Shown in pieces: positions 6,341-31,870 of a stretch of DNA of 64,000 bases; the stretch's first letter is position 1; every line of letters begins with the position of its first letter. Position numbers and translations under genes: made by a program. This DNA comes from an uncultured delta proteobacterium. GTDB taxonomy: Bacteria > Desulfobacterota > RBG-13-43-22. Under the pieces are notes generated by a model. The model did no database searches. It saw only the letters and a program-made list of their open reading frames with translations, and was not told the origin of the DNA. The DNA lies in NCBI GenBank assembly GCA_963790475.1, contig CAWBOS010000013.1, positions 449,730 through 513,729 of the forward strand, in the 5' to 3' direction.

Positions 6341-7600
6341 ATGAATAAGATTGAAACAAAAAAACTTAAGAAGGTCAATGAAAAAACCCTTATCGGTACC
6401 GTGGACATAGGCAAAACGACCAATATGGGATATGGCCGCTGTCCAGACCGGACGGAAATCAAACCTTTTGAGTTTTTCAATAATGATCAAGGATTTACGA
6501 AATTTTGGAATCGGATGGTTGAGGCCAAAGAGGCCAATCACTTGGAAGAAATCGTGGTTGGTTTTGAATCCACCGGGTCTTATGGAGAACCCTTGCAACA
6601 TTTTCTGATGAAACGGCCGGTGACACTGGTTCAGGTTAATCCTATGCATACGAAGAAGTTGAAGGAAGTCCAGGGTAACTCGCCCAATAAGACGGATAGG
6701 AAAGATCCCAAAGTCATTGCGGATATTATTGAGCTGGGTCATGCCCTTACCGTGGTCATTCCCGAAGGCGCGGCAGCTGAACTTCGCCGACTGACCCATG
6801 CCAGGGAGAGAGCCATACGAAGACGAACGGGCCTTTTGAACCAGATTCAGGATTTGGTCTTTATTGTCTTCCCCGAGTTTCTGCAAGTGATGAAGAATAT
6901 TAAAACCCGCAGTGCCCAATATCTGTTGCGGCATTATCCGTGCCCGGAAGATATTATCCAATGTGGTCTTGGGACCTTGAGGGCCACGCTGAGACGGGTT
7001 AGCCGAGGGAAGCTGGATAAAGAGCGAGCCCCGGCCCTTTATGCGGCCGCTGGCCATTCCGTAGGTCTTCAAGAAGGCCGCAAGGCGATTCTTTTTGAGA
7101 TACGAGAACTTCTTTCTGAGATTGAATCTTCTGACCAGTTTATTGAGAAGGCGGAACAGGAGATGGCGGCCCTTCTTCCCGAGATCCCCTATAGTCATTC
7201 GATTCTGTCCTTGAAAGGGATAGGAGAGGTTACCACCGCCGGACTGATTGGAGAAGTCGGGGATTTTCGTAAATTTCATACGCTGGCTGAAGTCCTGAAG
7301 TTGGCCGGACTGAACCTCTTTGAAATCAGTTCTGGAAGGCACCAAGGGAATCGTCATATATCCAAAAGAGGCCGGTCGCTTCTTAGGAAAATCCTCTTTT
7401 TTGCCGCTATCAATACGGTTCGAAAAGGGGGAGTGATGCATACGGCCTATCAAAGGCATCTGGATCAAGGAATGCCCAAGATCAAGGCCCTGGTAGCCAT
7501 TGCCCGGAAGCTTCTCGGTGTTATTTTTGCCTTGGTGCGTGATCATAACGAATATATGGAAAATTATTCAAAAGGAGCAACGTTAAAACTGGCTGCTTAG
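6341..7600 (+). CDS. IS110-family transposase/recombinase
   Basis: DEDD residues (VDIGK, FEST, KTDRKD), SSG serine loop, ISKRG, ARKL. Confidence 0.95.
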   Translation: MNKIETKKLKKVNEKTLIGTVDIGKTTNMGYGRCPDRTEIKPFEFFNNDQGFTKFWNRMVEAKEANHLEEIVVGFESTGSYGEPLQHFLMKRPVTLVQVNPMHTKKLKEVQGNSPNKTDRKDPKVIADIIELGHALTVVIPEGAAAELRRLTHARERAIRRRTGLLNQIQDLVFIVFPEFLQVMKNIKTRSAQYLLRHYPCPEDIIQCGLGTLRATLRRVSRGKLDKERAPALYAAAGHSVGLQEGRKAILFEIRELLSEIESSDQFIEKAEQEMAALLPEIPYSHSILSLKGIGEVTTAGLIGEVGDFRKFHTLAEVLKLAGLNLFEISSGRHQGNRHISKRGRSLLRKILFFAAINTVRKGGVMHTAYQRHLDQGMPKIKALVAIARKLLGVIFALVRDHNEYMENYSKGATLKLAA

Positions 7601-27329: not shown

Positions 27330-27492
27330 TTAATCTTCAAGCCGGTTCTGGTCAGAGGAGGCTACGGCTGGCAGCAAAAATAATCCAAAGGAAAGAAGCG
27401 GACCTTGACCCTTATGGCGGCGCCATCGACCTATTGGCCAATACATCCGCAAGCCATTTTCAAAATATATTCTAGGTGTGAGGAGGAAGATA

Positions 27493-29043
27493 ATGAGTAA
27501 ACAGGCAGCCCTTCATGAGTTGAAGAGGCGAAAGGAAGTAACTCAGGCCTTAGGCGGACCAAAGGCCATTGAGAGGCATAGAAAAAGAGGACATCTGACC
27601 GCCAGGGAGCGGCTTGATAAATTGCTGGATGAGGGATCATGGCGGGAGATAGGAGAACTTGAGCAGTTTATCGGACCCGACGGCCGGGAATATCATGTCA
27701 ACAAAATTCACGGATACGGCAAAATAAACGGCCGAACCGTCATTGTCCAGACCGATGACAGCACTATTCTGGCAGGAACCGGGGGCCGTAGTGTTTCAGG
27801 ACTGGCGCGGAGGAAGGGGCTTCACGAGGATTTGCTGCCTGAAAGAAACTTCCCTTACATCAGGCTCGGCGAGAGCGGCGGCGTGCATCTGCAAAGCGTC
27901 ATGGGGTCCACCGGCGTCCTGGCCGTAACCTATCCGGCCACGAGGTTGCTCAATCCGCGACGCGTACCCCGGGTAACCGGTATTATGGGCCTTTGTTTTG
28001 GTGATCCGACTTGGCAGGCCTCCATATCCGACTTCGTGGTGCAGGTAAAAGGGACCTGCATGGCTGTTTCCGGTCCGCGCGTGCTGGAAGTAGCCCTCAG
28101 CGAAAAGATCTCCCCCGAAGAATTGGGCGGTTGGAAATTGCATGCGGAAGTGACCGGACAGGTTGATGCCTTTGCTGAGGATGACGAACACTGTATGCGG
28201 ATCATTCGTGAATACCTATCCTACATGCCGTCCCACTGCGACGAGGAGCCGCCCTATATGGCCACGAAGGACCTCCCTGACCGCAAGACTAATAAATTGA
28301 TGGATATCATTCCCGACGTGTCCACCAGGGCTTACGACATGACCAGGGTCATCAAGGACATAGTGGATGAGGGGAAAATGTTTATCCTGAAGCCCTTTTT
28401 CGGCAAAGCCCTGATCACTTGTCTGGGCCGCCTGAACGGTCGAGTGGTGGGCTTTATTGCCAACCAGGTCCTTTATAACGTAGGAGCGGCCGGGGCCCAG
28501 GAATGTGAAAAGGCGACCAGTTTTATTGTCCTTTGCGATTCCTTCAATATCCCGATCATCAATTTGGCAGACACCCCCGGTTTGTTAGTCGGCAAGGAAG
28601 CCGAAACCAAAAAAATTCCCTCCAAGATTATGAACTGGATGGAAGCCCTGGCCCTGGCCACCGTGCCCAAGATTACCGTAATTATTCGCAAGGCCTACGG
28701 TATGGCTATTTCCAATATGGGAGGTCCGAATTGCGGGACTGATTTTATCGCCGCCTTGACAACGGCTGAAATAAGTTTCATGTCTCCCGAAGCGGCGGCC
28801 AACGTGGTTTGGGCTCAAAAAATCGCCGAAGCCGAAGATCCGGAAGCCGAAAGAAAAAGACTGATCGAAGAAATGCAGTACGGAAGCGCCCCCTGGCAGG
28901 CCGCCGCTGACGGCTGGCTGGATGAAGTCTTGGACCCCAGAGATTTGAGAACCTGGGTAATCGAGCGGCTGGAAATCATGCACAGCCGCAAAAATGGTTT
29001 TATGAGCCTGAAAAAATTGCAGGACTGGCCGACCGGTTATTAA
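27493..29043 (+). CDS. acyl-CoA carboxylase carboxyltransferase (beta) family protein
   Basis: LTARER, EELGG, DTPG, RKAYG. Confidence 0.88.
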   Translation: MSKQAALHELKRRKEVTQALGGPKAIERHRKRGHLTARERLDKLLDEGSWREIGELEQFIGPDGREYHVNKIHGYGKINGRTVIVQTDDSTILAGTGGRSVSGLARRKGLHEDLLPERNFPYIRLGESGGVHLQSVMGSTGVLAVTYPATRLLNPRRVPRVTGIMGLCFGDPTWQASISDFVVQVKGTCMAVSGPRVLEVALSEKISPEELGGWKLHAEVTGQVDAFAEDDEHCMRIIREYLSYMPSHCDEEPPYMATKDLPDRKTNKLMDIIPDVSTRAYDMTRVIKDIVDEGKMFILKPFFGKALITCLGRLNGRVVGFIANQVLYNVGAAGAQECEKATSFIVLCDSFNIPIINLADTPGLLVGKEAETKKIPSKIMNWMEALALATVPKITVIIRKAYGMAISNMGGPNCGTDFIAALTTAEISFMSPEAAANVVWAQKIAEAEDPEAERKRLIEEMQYGSAPWQAAADGWLDEVLDPRDLRTWVIERLEIMHSRKNGFMSLKKLQDWPTGY

Positions 29044-29399
29044 TGGTATTACTCCGGTAAATAAAGTCTTAGATAAGTTCGGATCGAAACTTTGAGAATT
29101 TTAATTTCGTGATTACGTTGTTACTGATAATCTCCTAATGTGTCGTCACCCCTTCTATGTTGAAAAGCAAGTCTTTTTTATTAGAGAATGACTTTTTTTT
29201 GGTTTTTAAGGTTTTTAAGATAAACCTCTTCACGGACGGCTGCCTGGATGATCTCCTGAGGAGGCTGAACTACCTGCGATAGAAACAGGCGACCATCCGT
29301 GAAGAGGTCACTTTTGGCAATTCCTTTTTAACCGCAGGAGATAGCCAAGGAAGCCGATCCGTCGATTAATTGATACCAAACTTGAGGGCTGGACCAATC

Positions 29400-29546
29400 T
29401 TTCAAATCAACCTTCTATCAGCAGACATATCTTGATGGATCGCTGCAGAATCTTGATAATGTTAAAATCGTGGGCACGGAGTCTAGTGAAGAGCAGGCAT
29501 CATCTGCCGATGAGCTGCAGGGGTGACGGACCGTTTATGCCCACGA
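29400..29546 (-). ncRNA. predicted bridge/seek RNA of IS110 element 2 (boundaries approximate)
   Basis: Stem 29468-29476/29538-29546 encloses 10/10 and 7/8 matches to target halves; CTTCTAT (29412-29418) matches donor end. Confidence 0.72.
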
Positions 29547-29582
29547 GCCGATTTATCGGATTGGAAGCACCTCTTCGGGTTA

Positions 29583-30653
29583 TTATTGAACTACACCAGG
29601 CACATATTCCACCTGGTTCTTTAACACATAACGAATGCGGTTGAGCAGTTTCCGGGCGATCTTGATAATGGCCCTGGTTTTCTTCATCCGTTGGCAATAT
29701 TCATTAAAGGCCAAAAGCAGGACCGGGTCCTTGCGGGCCGCCACCCAGGCGGCTTCGATGAGCAAAGCCCTTAATTGGGGGTTTCGCCGGTGGGTTAAGT
29801 TTTTTATATGTTCGGTCTCCCCACTGGATTCGACATCGGGGATTAATCCGACATAACTGGCCAACTTGTCGAGGGAGACAAAGCGGGCCAACTCACCCAG
29901 CTCGGTCAGGAAAATCATGGCCGCCAGGGTACTGATCCCCGGGATCGTTTTTAACAACCGGACCCTTTCGCGATATTCTGCTTCCCGGGCCAGCAAAATG
30001 ATGGACCGGTTTAAAGAAGCGATGATCCGTTTCAGATGATGGAGTTCGTCTAAGTGGGCCTTGAGGGCCATATCGCCACTGGTCCGCTCCATACGAAGAT
30101 TTTCGAGACAGCCAAGAAATTTTTGAGACCAATGGCGGTCAACAACTTCTTCGGGCAGAGTAATCCCATAGAAGTAAAGGAGCGCCTTAATTTGATTTTT
30201 ACACCGGGTTTGCTTTCTCACCATACTTTGGCGGGTTCGAACCAGACTGCGATCCTCCAGCTTCGGACGGCTCGGGACGTAAATCCCTTTCAGTTCCCCG
30301 CTCCGGAGGCTCCTGCCCAGCTTGCGGCTGTCGGTTCGATCCCGCCTAGTGGTCCGTTCTTTATTGGTCGTCGGGACATCGGCCGGGTTGACCACGATGC
30401 AATTCACCCCTTTTTCCTGAAGCTGATCGTGAGCCCAGAAGCCGCTAAACCCGGCCTCATAGGCCGCCTGATAGCTCGCTCCAGGAAAGTTCTTTCGAAG
30501 ATAATGGACCAGTTTGTCTGCTTCTGGAGGTTGGGTAAAAGTCTTATGCTCGCACTGTCTAGAAAAAATGCTCACGCTCCAACTCTTCTTGTGGACATCC
30601 AGTCCCACGTAAATCGATTGACCCGAAAAATCCAATTTGTTAATCTGTACCAC
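29583..30653 (-). CDS. IS110-family transposase/recombinase
   Basis: GLDVHK, YEAG, RDRTD, ESSG, IARKLL. Confidence 0.95.
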   Translation of the reverse strand: MVQINKLDFSGQSIYVGLDVHKKSWSVSIFSRQCEHKTFTQPPEADKLVHYLRKNFPGASYQAAYEAGFSGFWAHDQLQEKGVNCIVVNPADVPTTNKERTTRRDRTDSRKLGRSLRSGELKGIYVPSRPKLEDRSLVRTRQSMVRKQTRCKNQIKALLYFYGITLPEEVVDRHWSQKFLGCLENLRMERTSGDMALKAHLDELHHLKRIIASLNRSIILLAREAEYRERVRLLKTIPGISTLAAMIFLTELGELARFVSLDKLASYVGLIPDVESSGETEHIKNLTHRRNPQLRALLIEAAWVAARKDPVLLLAFNEYCQRMKKTRAIIKIARKLLNRIRYVLKNQVEYVPGVVQ

Positions 30654-30720
30654 GGCAAGTCTCCTTTCGGTTTGTTTTTTTACCCTAAAAAAAGTATATC
30701 CGAAAGCTTCGAGACTTGCC
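30654..30720 (-). promoter_or_regulatory. 5' hairpin occluding transposase RBS
   Basis: GGCAAGTCTC (30654-30663) / GAGACTTGCC (30711-30720) plus CTTTCGG/CCGAAAG. Confidence 0.65.
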
Positions 30721-30741
30721 TTTCTTTTTCAATCATAAGGT

Positions 30742-30810
30742 CTGGTGAAAACCGGGGTCCAGGATTATATCTAATTGACAATTCTGGATTCCGACTTTCG
30801 TCAGAATGAC
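30742..30810. repeat. REP-like palindrome pair, target of IS110 element 2 (left tip at 29145-29153)
   Basis: ..ggtgaaaaccggggtccag ... ctggattccgactttcgtcagaatgac. Confidence 0.75.
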
Positions 30811-30981
30811 AAAAATAGGCTTCCCATGATTTCTTTCCCTAGATCATCCTTGATGGATTCTCGTTATTTTAAGAATTACAATTTTATATATTTTACTGCC
30901 ATAGTAATAGTGGGTGTGCCCCTGCGAATTGTACACCAGAGCATCATTAGCCTTATCGGTTTCGATTTAAAATAAACAGTC

Positions 30982-31009
30982 CGCCCCACCGAAGAGATTA
31001 GGTGGGGCG
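30982..31009 (-). terminator. GC hairpin, probable terminator
   Basis: cgccccacc...ggtggggcg just after the methyltransferase stop. Confidence 0.5.
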
Positions 31010-31024
31010 AAGAAACCCGAATAA

Positions 31025-31870
31025 TTAGTGGTTTGGTTTAATAGCTGCCAGGGATAAATATTCCCAGGGATAAACCAGAAAACCTATATTTGAAATTCCC
31101 CAGGTGATTTTGTGGTTAATAATAAGACTGACCGAATGGGAAAGAACCCATCGGCGAAAATGAGGTTTTACGTAGGCAGTAATGTTTCTATCGTCAATAA
31201 TTTCAAATCCCGCCTCCCGAACCTTCCCGATATAGTCAGCTAAGCCGTGAATGTTGGCCGATGGGATATATAAGTTATCCTGCAAATGGGCTAAAGTAAT
31301 TTTCTCCAAGGCATTCCGGGGCTGATTATACACAATATCCGCCAGCGACAAGATACCGCCAGGCTTCAGTGTTCGAAAGGCCTCCCGGAAGAAATCTTCT
31401 CTTGAATCAAAATGAAAAGCCGATTCCGTACTGATCATTTTGTCGATGGAATTATCGGCAAATTGCAGATCTGTTGCCGACATTTTTGTAATTGTAATTC
31501 GACCTTGCAGATTCTGCCGCGCGATTCTCTCTTTGGATTGTTCAATCTGATACTGCGAAATATTTATGCCGATAACCTTAGGGCAATGAAAATCCGTGGC
31601 GCAGAGAAGCGCCGCATTTCCGAACCCGCAACCAATATCAGCGACAAGATGATCTCTCTCCGACAATCGAGCGTTTTCACATACTAATTGGAAAAGCGCG
31701 TAATTGGAACGGAACAAATTCCTTTTGCCGTTAGAGTTTAGCCCCTTCCAGTATCCCATGTTGACCAGGGAGATATGGGTTCGGGCATCATAGGCAAGGG
31801 GCGCCTTGCCCATAAAATCGTACAGGGCGCCTGCGTCAGGGAAAGTAGCGCTGACCTTATTTTTTTTCAT
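31025..31870 (-). CDS. class I SAM-dependent methyltransferase
   Basis: NMGYW, ADIGCGFG, ESAFHF, LKPGG. Confidence 0.88.
   Translation of the reverse strand: MKKNKVSATFPDAGALYDFMGKAPLAYDARTHISLVNMGYWKGLNSNGKRNLFRSNYALFQLVCENARLSERDHLVADIGCGFGNAALLCATDFHCPKVIGINISQYQIEQSKERIARQNLQGRITITKMSATDLQFADNSIDKMISTESAFHFDSREDFFREAFRTLKPGGILSLADIVYNQPRNALEKITLAHLQDNLYIPSANIHGLADYIGKVREAGFEIIDDRNITAYVKPHFRRWVLSHSVSLIINHKITWGISNIGFLVYPWEYLSLAAIKPNH

Follow-up and report, generated by a model that had tools for sequence, protein, structure and literature searches.

Does the non-coding 3' end of an insertion sequence (IS) encode an RNA that spells the very site in which the element lies? The question is raised by an IS110-family element on the minus strand of a 64,000-nt stretch of DNA (hereafter the window) from an uncultured delta proteobacterium (contig CAWBOS010000013.1). 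The element is 1,590 bp long (29154-30743) and its host site is a hairpin resembling a repetitive extragenic palindromic (REP) sequence. An initial annotation of the window had described it as an IS110/IS1111-type recombinase gene with an RNA whose guides encode the element's own site. Judging from family profiles and from the way in which guides track flanks, that description appears sound: this is very probably an IS1111-group element in which the transposase gene is followed by a predicted bridge/seek RNA with guides for its own insertion site. The matches between guides and flanks are not due to chance. Among the known IS1111-type bridge/seek-RNA recombinases the element stands as a clean example from nature, and its mechanism is not new.

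The element and its predicted RNA

The transposase has the DEDD (RuvC-like) N-terminal domain and the Transposase_20 C-terminal domain of the IS110 family, as matched by the Pfam profiles DEDD_Tnp_IS110 (PF01548, 3.1e-12) and Transposase_20 (PF02371, 7.9e-21). It scored 198.8 bits, for a cut-off of 140, with the NCBIfam profile NF033542 ("IS110 family RNA-guided transposase"). Its sole relatives among solved structures are the transposases of ISCro4 (E=4.5e-08) and IS621 (8wt6_A, E=1.5e-05), and in the alignment with ISCro4 its residues D19, E66, D105 and D108 fall opposite the acidic residues of catalysis. IS1111 elements are described as having sub-terminal inverted repeats, a 3' non-coding region, and transposases with a GL-P----S(t)G motif (Siddiquee et al. 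2024, PMC11187229). Here this C-terminal motif reads GLIPDVESSG (residues 269-278), and the non-coding DNA amounts to 429 nt 3' of the gene (29154-29582) against 88 nt on the 5' side (30654-30741). A 13-nt inverted repeat pair (92% complementary), within the 7-17 bp of the group, lies 8 and 17 nt inside the ends. The protein has 356 aa from its GTG start, for a group figure of 330-350. Membership of the IS1111 group was assigned on these features, the named reference elements being compared by description.

A search of the window's own genome with positions 29100-30800 retrieved a 99% identical copy on contig C1, the diverged copies C12a (88%) and C12b (85-91%, with an internal deletion) on contig C12, and three fragments. 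The first 57 and the last 53 bases of the query belong to a dispersed repeat with dozens of copies. At C12:340854-340966 and C1:226230-226342 the two repeat pieces abut directly (query bases 57 and 1649 joined). These are therefore empty sites, and together with an alignment of four copies they set the boundaries of the element. The termini as inserted in the window are AGACCTTATG...CAACATAGA, and on the element strand the junctions read ...CCCCGGTTTTCACC-AG|ACCTTATG... and ...CAACATAGA-AG|GGGTGACGAC... Insertion is site- and orientation-specific without conventional target duplication, the junctions sharing only a core of 1-2 nt. The window and C1 copies have the same site word and orientation.

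The predicted RNA lies in the 3' non-coding region (Table 1). Its target-binding module is closed by a 9-bp outer stem whose sides, TCGTGGGCA (29468-29476, plus strand) and TGCCCACGA (29538-29546), are perfect reverse complements. The loop carries two words, which address opposite target strands, overlap at the core and vary with the target. The right-target guide, CGUCACCCCU as read on the element strand (AGGGGTGACG on the plus strand), is an exact complement (10/10) of the right junction at 29153-29144. The left-target guide UUCACUAG agrees with the left junction TTCACCAG (30749-30742) at 7/8 positions; its one odd base, a U where the target has C, stands opposite a bottom-strand G and thus forms a wobble pair. 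AGGGGTGACG occurs twice in the window, in the flank and in the guide, for an expectation of 0.05, and two or more matches were found in 0/100 shuffles. On the RNA strand CGUCACCCCU (29528-29519) stands 5' of UUCACUAG (29490-29483), i.e., in the IS1111-type order. A third word, AUAGAAG, equals the element's right end plus AG (29158-29152). The initial annotation had located the stem and the three words correctly on both strands, and the matches it counted (10/10, 7/8 and identity with the donor end) all held. It had placed AUAGAAG in a second loop; in the predicted fold the word belongs rather to a three-way junction, as part of the unpaired strand that leads from the donor hairpin to the closing helix.

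To compare this RNA with those of relatives we used 80 loci (54-87% protein identity) which, by record title, come from Deltaproteobacteria/Thermodesulfobacteriota, Nitrospirota, Ignavibacteriota, Bacteroidota and other metagenome-assembled genomes. A donor-module anchor and enough sequence were present in 73 of the 80, which gave 52 distinct RNA regions once 21 duplicates of identical regions were dropped. Those left out were L032, L039, L044, L057, L100 and L108, which have no donor-module anchor, and L099, which is too short. With three copies from the window's own genome, the alignment has 55 rows and 48 distinct guide pairs. One of the loci set aside, L032 (JACQYK010000092.1; 84% protein identity, the closest relative but one), has kept the target module and lost the donor hairpin and AUAGAAG; at its 3' end the sequence continues straight to the hairpin of the spacer described below.

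The RNA scaffold is conserved across this alignment. In its 35 pairs, 89.1% of 1,847 cells were paired, against 34.7-44.2% when the partners were slid by 1-3 columns; 24 of the 35 pairs changed on both sides, and 0/500 shuffles matched any of the five measures. The helices of the target module were paired in 86.8-100% of cells, with compensatory changes, and the N pair of the CGN/N'CG helix covaried (CG 25, GC 8, UA 7, AU 2). The donor hairpin (29446-29421) was paired in 98.1%, with compensatory changes in five of its eight pairs. The closing helix (29564-29394) was the weakest (65.8-80.8%), in part because this region aligns poorly. The three-way junction was agreed upon by the single-sequence fold (-67.2 kcal/mol, z=-2.94), by RNAalifold and by the pair counts on a hand-written structure; the RNAalifold structure is without the closing helix, which was taken by hand from the single-sequence fold.

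Guides and flanks in copies and relatives

In the 3'-end alignment of the genome copies the scaffold is conserved and the loop words vary. The window and C1 copies carry the guides CGTCACCCCT and TTCACTAG and lie in TTTTCACC-AG...AG-GGGTGACG. Their flanks differ further out, so that they are independent insertions into different repeat copies with the same word. C12a and C12b carry CGTCATTCCT and TTCGCGAG; the site of the former reads CCTCCGCG-AG...(A)G-GAATGACG and that of the latter CTTTCGCG-AG...AG-GAAGGATG (left 8/8, right 6/8). One of these diverged copies has the words CGUCAUUCCU and UUCGCGAG, and the REP subtype at its site reads exactly those. The C15 fragment, with the guides TGTCATTCCT and TTCGCCAG, has ...GAATGACG as its right flank. 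The initial annotation had named copies in sites unrelated to the guides as the contrary outcome; the C1 copy lies instead in an independent REP with the same word, and C12a in the subtype that its words spell.

As a stronger control than the shuffles, we then scored the guides of each representative against two sets of flanks, its own and those of all the others. Element ends of the relatives were called by fuzzy matches to the conserved termini, which left the flank unreadable in 3/48 representatives on the right and 10/48 on the left; the right score is the best of four offsets in both sets. Over the 8 nt past the core, right guides matched their own flank at a mean of 6.76/8 positions (n=45; 18 at 8/8 and 13 at 7/8), against 4.14 for swapped pairs (n=2115; 44 at 8/8), a set that is inflated because many targets have the common GAATGAC-type REP word. 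Left guides gave a mean of 5.11 for own flanks (n=38) and 2.34 for swapped ones (n=1786; none at 8/8). The covariation across homologous elements that the initial annotation had proposed to look for is thus present both in the scaffold and in the 48 guide pairs, which track their flanks.

Per position, agreement with the own flank was 0.80-0.96 from the core to the seventh base of the right target, 0.53 at the eighth and at background beyond. On the left it was 0.87-0.92 for the first four bases counted from the core, 0.68 at the fifth and 0.45 at the sixth. Guide lengths of about 9-10 nt (right) and 7-8 nt (left) follow, the AG being counted in each. The long target guides of the initial annotation therefore stand on the right side (2+7 to 8 nt), whereas on the left about 5-6 nt besides the AG carry information. 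Four relatives outside REPs have other words altogether: L051 (AGATTACGCA; AG-ATTACGCA for the flank ATTACGCAGA), L063 (AGCATAAAAT; AG-CATAAAAT for CATAAAATTA), L105 (AGAAAGATTA; AG-AAAGATTAT for AAAGATTATG) and L101 (AGCGGGGGCC; AG-CGGGGGC for CGGGGGCAGC). In genomes with several copies, one guide set went with one type of site, in 5/5 cases for the L051 group and 13/14 for the L070 group, where the end of the fourteenth was mis-called.

The guides covary with the donor ends as well. The five variable-context bases of the AUAGAAG word equal the right-end word in 47 of the 48 representatives (ATAGA 29, ATAAA 12, ATAGG 4, ATAAG 2), the sole exception being L110, whose end call is doubtful. The right-donor strand that precedes the donor hairpin (consensus AUCAAGGU) is complementary to ACCTT, the first bases of the left end; its positions 3-5 form Watson-Crick pairs in 31-36 of 38 distinct rows. 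These data bear on the alternative that has the most in its favour, namely that only the 79-nt target module works, as a short seekRNA, the protein reading the ends through the sub-terminal repeats and AUAGAAG being no donor guide. A short seekRNA of 70-100 nt is reported to suffice for transposition of ISEc11 (PMC11187229), the right-donor strand is weak here, and the sub-terminal repeats are conserved. Yet AUAGAAG changes together with the right-end word through four variants, the donor hairpin and the closing helix are kept with compensatory changes, and wherever a left end has T at position 2 (five cases), the right-donor strand supplies the A that pairs with it. We therefore consider this alternative unlikely.

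The guide RNA would act as follows, the making of the RNA, its binding by the protein and its role in directing recombination being inferred from the literature. An RNA of about 171 nt, encoded 3' of the DEDD/serine recombinase gene, would form a three-way junction with two modules. In its target loop, the 5' strand would address the right half of the target by pairing with the top strand there (about 2+7 nt), and the 3' strand would address the left half through the bottom strand (about 5-6+2 nt). In the circular junction AUAGAAG would pair with the element's right end, and the weak AAG(G/A)N strand with the bases that begin the left end. Recombinase and RNA together would then recombine the circle junction CATAGA-AG-ACCTTATG with the target at the point just 3' of the left target, and the joined ends would build a sigma-70-type promoter for transposase and RNA. 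Ends of the window element joined by script give TTGCTT, a 17-nt spacer and TATGAT, and the rebuilt junctions of relatives have TTGNNN-17-TATGNT in 39/48. In the integrated state (30732-30761, minus strand) the TATGAT of the left end and a TGGACC in the flanking REP arm form a weak promoter-like site (9/12 matches, 18-nt spacer), which might allow the transposase and the RNA to be transcribed at a basal level.

Several observations weigh against a working guide RNA of this kind. Reading frames are intact in the window and C1 copies and shortened to 266 aa in C12a and 213 aa in C12b; the last two copies are probably dead, judging from these frames, and the agreement of their guides with their sites is thus historical. 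The right flank matched at 5/8 positions or fewer in 8 of 45 representatives (C15, L048, L050, L058, L059, L069, L084 and L110). The right-donor guide, fairly called weak in the initial annotation, pairs badly in the window copy, where AAGAU stands against ACCTT and position 2 is an A-C mismatch; 11 of the 38 distinct rows, this one included, have that mismatch. The 18-nt target rebuilt in the initial annotation, TTTTCACC-AG-GGGTGACG, is what the guides spell, but it has no uninterrupted occurrence (0 matches to TTCAC[CT]AGGGGTGAC genome-wide). A scan of 28900-31000 with Rfam 15, which may hold no model for the group, gave only chance-level microRNA and snoRNA matches (best 19.4 bits, gathering threshold 77). 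Finally, the count of G·U over A·C in the helices (77 vs 41) favours the transposase-sense strand only mildly; most of the excess lies in the poorly aligned closing helix, and it is indecisive.

With so modest an excess, and with helices and complementarity that are strand-symmetric, the region might instead act as DNA, through single-stranded hairpins or protein sites, or through an RNA of the opposite strand. This is highly improbable: in four IS1111 elements RNA-seq and co-purification are reported to put the RNA on the transposase strand, downstream of the gene (PMC11187229), and the junction promoter here points along that same strand. It is scarcely credible that the matches were merely inherited with a REP fragment captured in the 3' end of the element. 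Both words are part of a repeat with about 150 genome copies, yet they occupy the two opposing strands of a single internal loop, within a scaffold that is conserved, and are replaced in the four non-REP relatives by wholly different words that each fit their own flank.

The core and the asymmetric junctions

The AG core put forward in the initial annotation stands in both guides, in the donor junction and in four of seven free sites of a related genome, whereas the REP arms of the window's own genome mostly have no A. The hairpin arm reads TGGACCCCGG-TTTTCA-CCGGGGTGAC. Uninterrupted REPs in this genome have TTTTCACC-G-GGGTGACG, one base shorter than the site spelled by the guides, and we counted 149 arms without the A (left target, G, right target) against three clear AG-type ones. 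The uninterrupted arms include GCTTTCGCCGGAATGAC (47 copies), GCTTTCGCCGGGGTGAC (31), GCCTCCGCGGGAATGAC (9) and GTTTTCACCGGGGTGAC (7); those of the window element's own subtype read GTTTTCACC-G-GGGTGAC (7 copies). Two of the AG-type arms (C1:17313 and C6:43952) read TTCGCC-AG-GGGTGACG, and the third (C13:110986) reads TTCGCG-AG-GAATGACG, a 16/16 match to the guides of C12a and C12b. These three arms may be rare variants of natural origin, products of excision or preferred landing sites.

The two junctions differ in their behaviour. Across the family the left one always has AG before ACCTTATG. The right one is "long" (CATAGA-AG-right target) in the window copy, the C1 copy and the L051 group, and "short" (CATAGA-G-right target) in C12a and in 13 copies of the L070 genome (G001). 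The free sites of G001 have no A (13 without, 0 with), and in the L051 genome (G002) four of the seven free sites are exactly left target-AG-right target, the others having GG, AT and a 3-nt spacer. One description fits all of these junctions as read from the sequences: AGACCTT...CATAGA is placed straight after the left target, and the core of the target, AG or G, is kept on the right. The AG would then be both the donor core of the family and its preferred target core, with shortened-core REP targets used too. On the same description, the AG on the right of the window and C1 copies points to entry into AG-type GTTTTCACC arms, none of which is left unoccupied. Other registers that we tried, i.e., a 1-nt G core, a core that includes the last base of the left target, and excision footprints behind the rare AG-type REP sites, did not fit all junctions.

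We tentatively suggest that natural junctions record the polarity of strand exchange, the left one holding the donor AG and the right one the target's own core. In IS621 the top strands are reported to be cut 3' of the CT core, with the first core base less constrained (PMC11208158), and integration is reported to proceed mainly by top-strand insertion (preprint 10.1101/2025.10.25.684509). Read on the opposite strand, the core here is CT, and the point of exchange might, as one possible view, lie 3' of it as in IS621. The 5' strand of the loop would then be the left-target guide: the left target would be guided in the same sense by CGUCACCC-CU, from the 5' side of the loop, and the right target by the complementary UUCACU-AG, from the 3' side, again as in IS621. 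Exchange of the opposite strand alone would leave the donor core at one junction and the target core at the other, as seen. Against this polarity stands the invariant core base, which is G in this family (the C of CT) and T in IS621, and does not fit a simple mirror image. If the view is true, the "reversed guide order" of IS1111 would mean only that the RNA/transposase unit is inverted relative to the polarity of the core. The products would inherit the information of the strand exchanged first, and the enzyme would tolerate a core one base short.

Surroundings, known systems and significance

The coordinates of all features are given in Table 1. The element sits in an intergenic REP between the genes for a carboxyltransferase-domain protein (27478-29043, plus strand) and a class I methyltransferase (31025-31870, minus strand), neither of which is interrupted.

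Table 1. Features of the IS1111-type element and its insertion site, listed from the left flank to the right flank (window positions).
Feature	Position	Strand	Basis or detail
Left target TTTTCACC, 3' half of REP-like hairpin arm	30744..30751	-	Junction reading and copy alignment; repeated flank
Insertion sequence as inserted	29154..30743	-	Empty sites and four-copy alignment
AG at left junction, donor-type core	30742..30743	-	AG ends 38/38 readable left flanks (at least 12 nt) and 48/48 guide words
TATGAT, -10-like hexamer in left end	30732..30737	-	Rebuilt junction
Left sub-terminal inverted repeat	30712..30724	-	13 nt, 92% complementary to 29162-29174
Transposase/recombinase gene, 356 aa, GTG start	29583..30653	-	Pfam and NCBIfam profiles
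Predicted bridge/seek RNA, long form, 171 nt	29394..29564	-	Closing helix CCAAUC/GAUUGG and AAAUC/GAUUU around two hairpin modules
Predicted target-binding module, 79 nt	29468..29546	-	9-bp outer stem, CGN/N'CG, guide loop, inner stem GCAG/CUGC with variable hairpin
Predicted right-target guide CGUCACCCCU	29519..29528	-	Complement of top strand AG+GGGTGACG
Predicted left-target guide UUCACUAG	29483..29490	-	Same sense as TTCACC+AG; pairs bottom strand
Predicted donor module	29421..29457	-	Weak right-donor strand AUCAAGAUUCU (29447-29457) and hairpin GCAG...CUGC (29421-29446)
Predicted left-donor guide AUAGAAG	29412..29418	-	Junction strand, donor hairpin to closing helix
Lineage-specific spacer, RNA to right end	29178..29393	-	About 215 nt; long hairpin arms 29224-29246 and 29286-29308
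Right sub-terminal inverted repeat	29162..29174	-	Overlaps -35-like TTGCTT at 29165-29170
Right junction AG (29153-29152) and right target GGGTGACG (29151-29144)	29144..29153	-	Junction reading, copy alignment

The spacer between the RNA and the right end occurs inside this IS, in its several copies, and in the relatives nearest to it, and nowhere else; relatives of 1.42-1.44 kb are without it. The long hairpin of the spacer is followed by UUUAUCUU, and the spacer may serve as a terminator. By analogy with ssr9 of ISPpu9 we looked for free-standing copies of the 215-nt spacer and found none in the genome outside this IS.

Two other traces of IS110-family elements lie on the same contig. A second transposase of the family (6401-6874, plus strand; G000:C13:456130-456603), presumably the "element 1" of the initial annotation, has a 428-aa open frame, and its DEDD_Tnp_IS110 match recurs with the same score in ten places of the genome. 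About 4.7 kb before the start of the window lies a 5'-truncated copy (G000:C13:444747-445049, minus strand). What remains is about 110 nt from the end of the transposase gene, a complete bridge-RNA region whose guide words are its own, and the right end. The 215-nt spacer is missing, and the sequence at the right junction is CATAGA-TG-GGGTGACG.

Published accounts of IS1111 elements describe a seekRNA that co-purifies with the transposase, in short (70-100 nt, around 80) and long (145-170 nt, around 150-170) forms. It comes from the 3' non-coding region; the word that pairs with the top strand stands first, on the 5' side, followed by the one for the bottom strand, and the promoter arises at the circle junction when the ends join (PMC11187229). 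For 93% of IS1111 elements a bridge RNA has also been predicted, in the right end and often with donor nucleotides in a multiloop (Durrant et al. 2024, PMC11208160). These accounts are matched here by the predicted modules of 79 and 171 nt, by the word order and by the place of AUAGAAG in a multiloop, and this is what makes the element one of a known kind. It resembles ISEc11, ISPa11, ISKpn4 and ISPst6, as described, in its DEDD transposase with the motif, sub-terminal repeats, 3' RNA region, word order, size classes and circle-junction promoter, and it shares the targeting of REPs with ISPa11. It differs from the four in its transposase of 356 rather than 330-350 aa, in the extra hairpin spacer of about 215 nt, and in that its RNA is predicted and theirs observed (PMC11187229).

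The comparison with IS621, as reported (PMC11208160; PMC11208158), is more mixed. Both have an RNA of two modules, predicted in the present element, whose target loop and donor part would each read both strands around a 2-nt core, as well as a REP target, a junction promoter and a flexible first core base, and the recombinases are distant homologues. In contrast, the RNA is at the 3' end here and at the 5' end in IS621, and the order of the guides is reversed relative to the transposase strand. The core on the transposase strand is AG here (CT on the other strand) and CT in IS621, the donor nucleotides lie in a three-way junction rather than an internal loop, and the sub-terminal repeats here are long. 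ISPpu9 and ISPpu10 of Pseudomonas putida are likewise IS110-family elements in REP sequences, ISPpu10 having a hybrid junction promoter; the ssr9 RNA of ISPpu9, however, is reported to be dispensable for transposition and to form circles of its own, whereas the predicted downstream RNA here carries the target words (Pares-Guillen et al. 2025, PMC12288879).

Natural reprogramming among relatives has already been noted by Siddiquee et al. (PMC11187229), and the subfamily may already be catalogued in published supplements (seekRNA folds, ISfinder target logos, Supplementary Table 5 of Durrant et al.). For genome annotation, the guides explain why the element is confined to REP-like hairpins. The asymmetry of the junctions is a small lead on how mismatched cores are resolved. 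In the literature cited here the solved structures are those of IS621, of the IS110 group, so that as far as these sources go there are as yet no structure-based design rules for IS1111-type systems. The element adds to the programmable bridge/seek-RNA recombinases a well-resolved natural subfamily in which a single scaffold is conserved and its guide pairs, 48 in all, have been reprogrammed in nature. The lengths of the guides and their fixed and free positions can be read from these pairs, which is useful for the engineering of IS1111-type systems.

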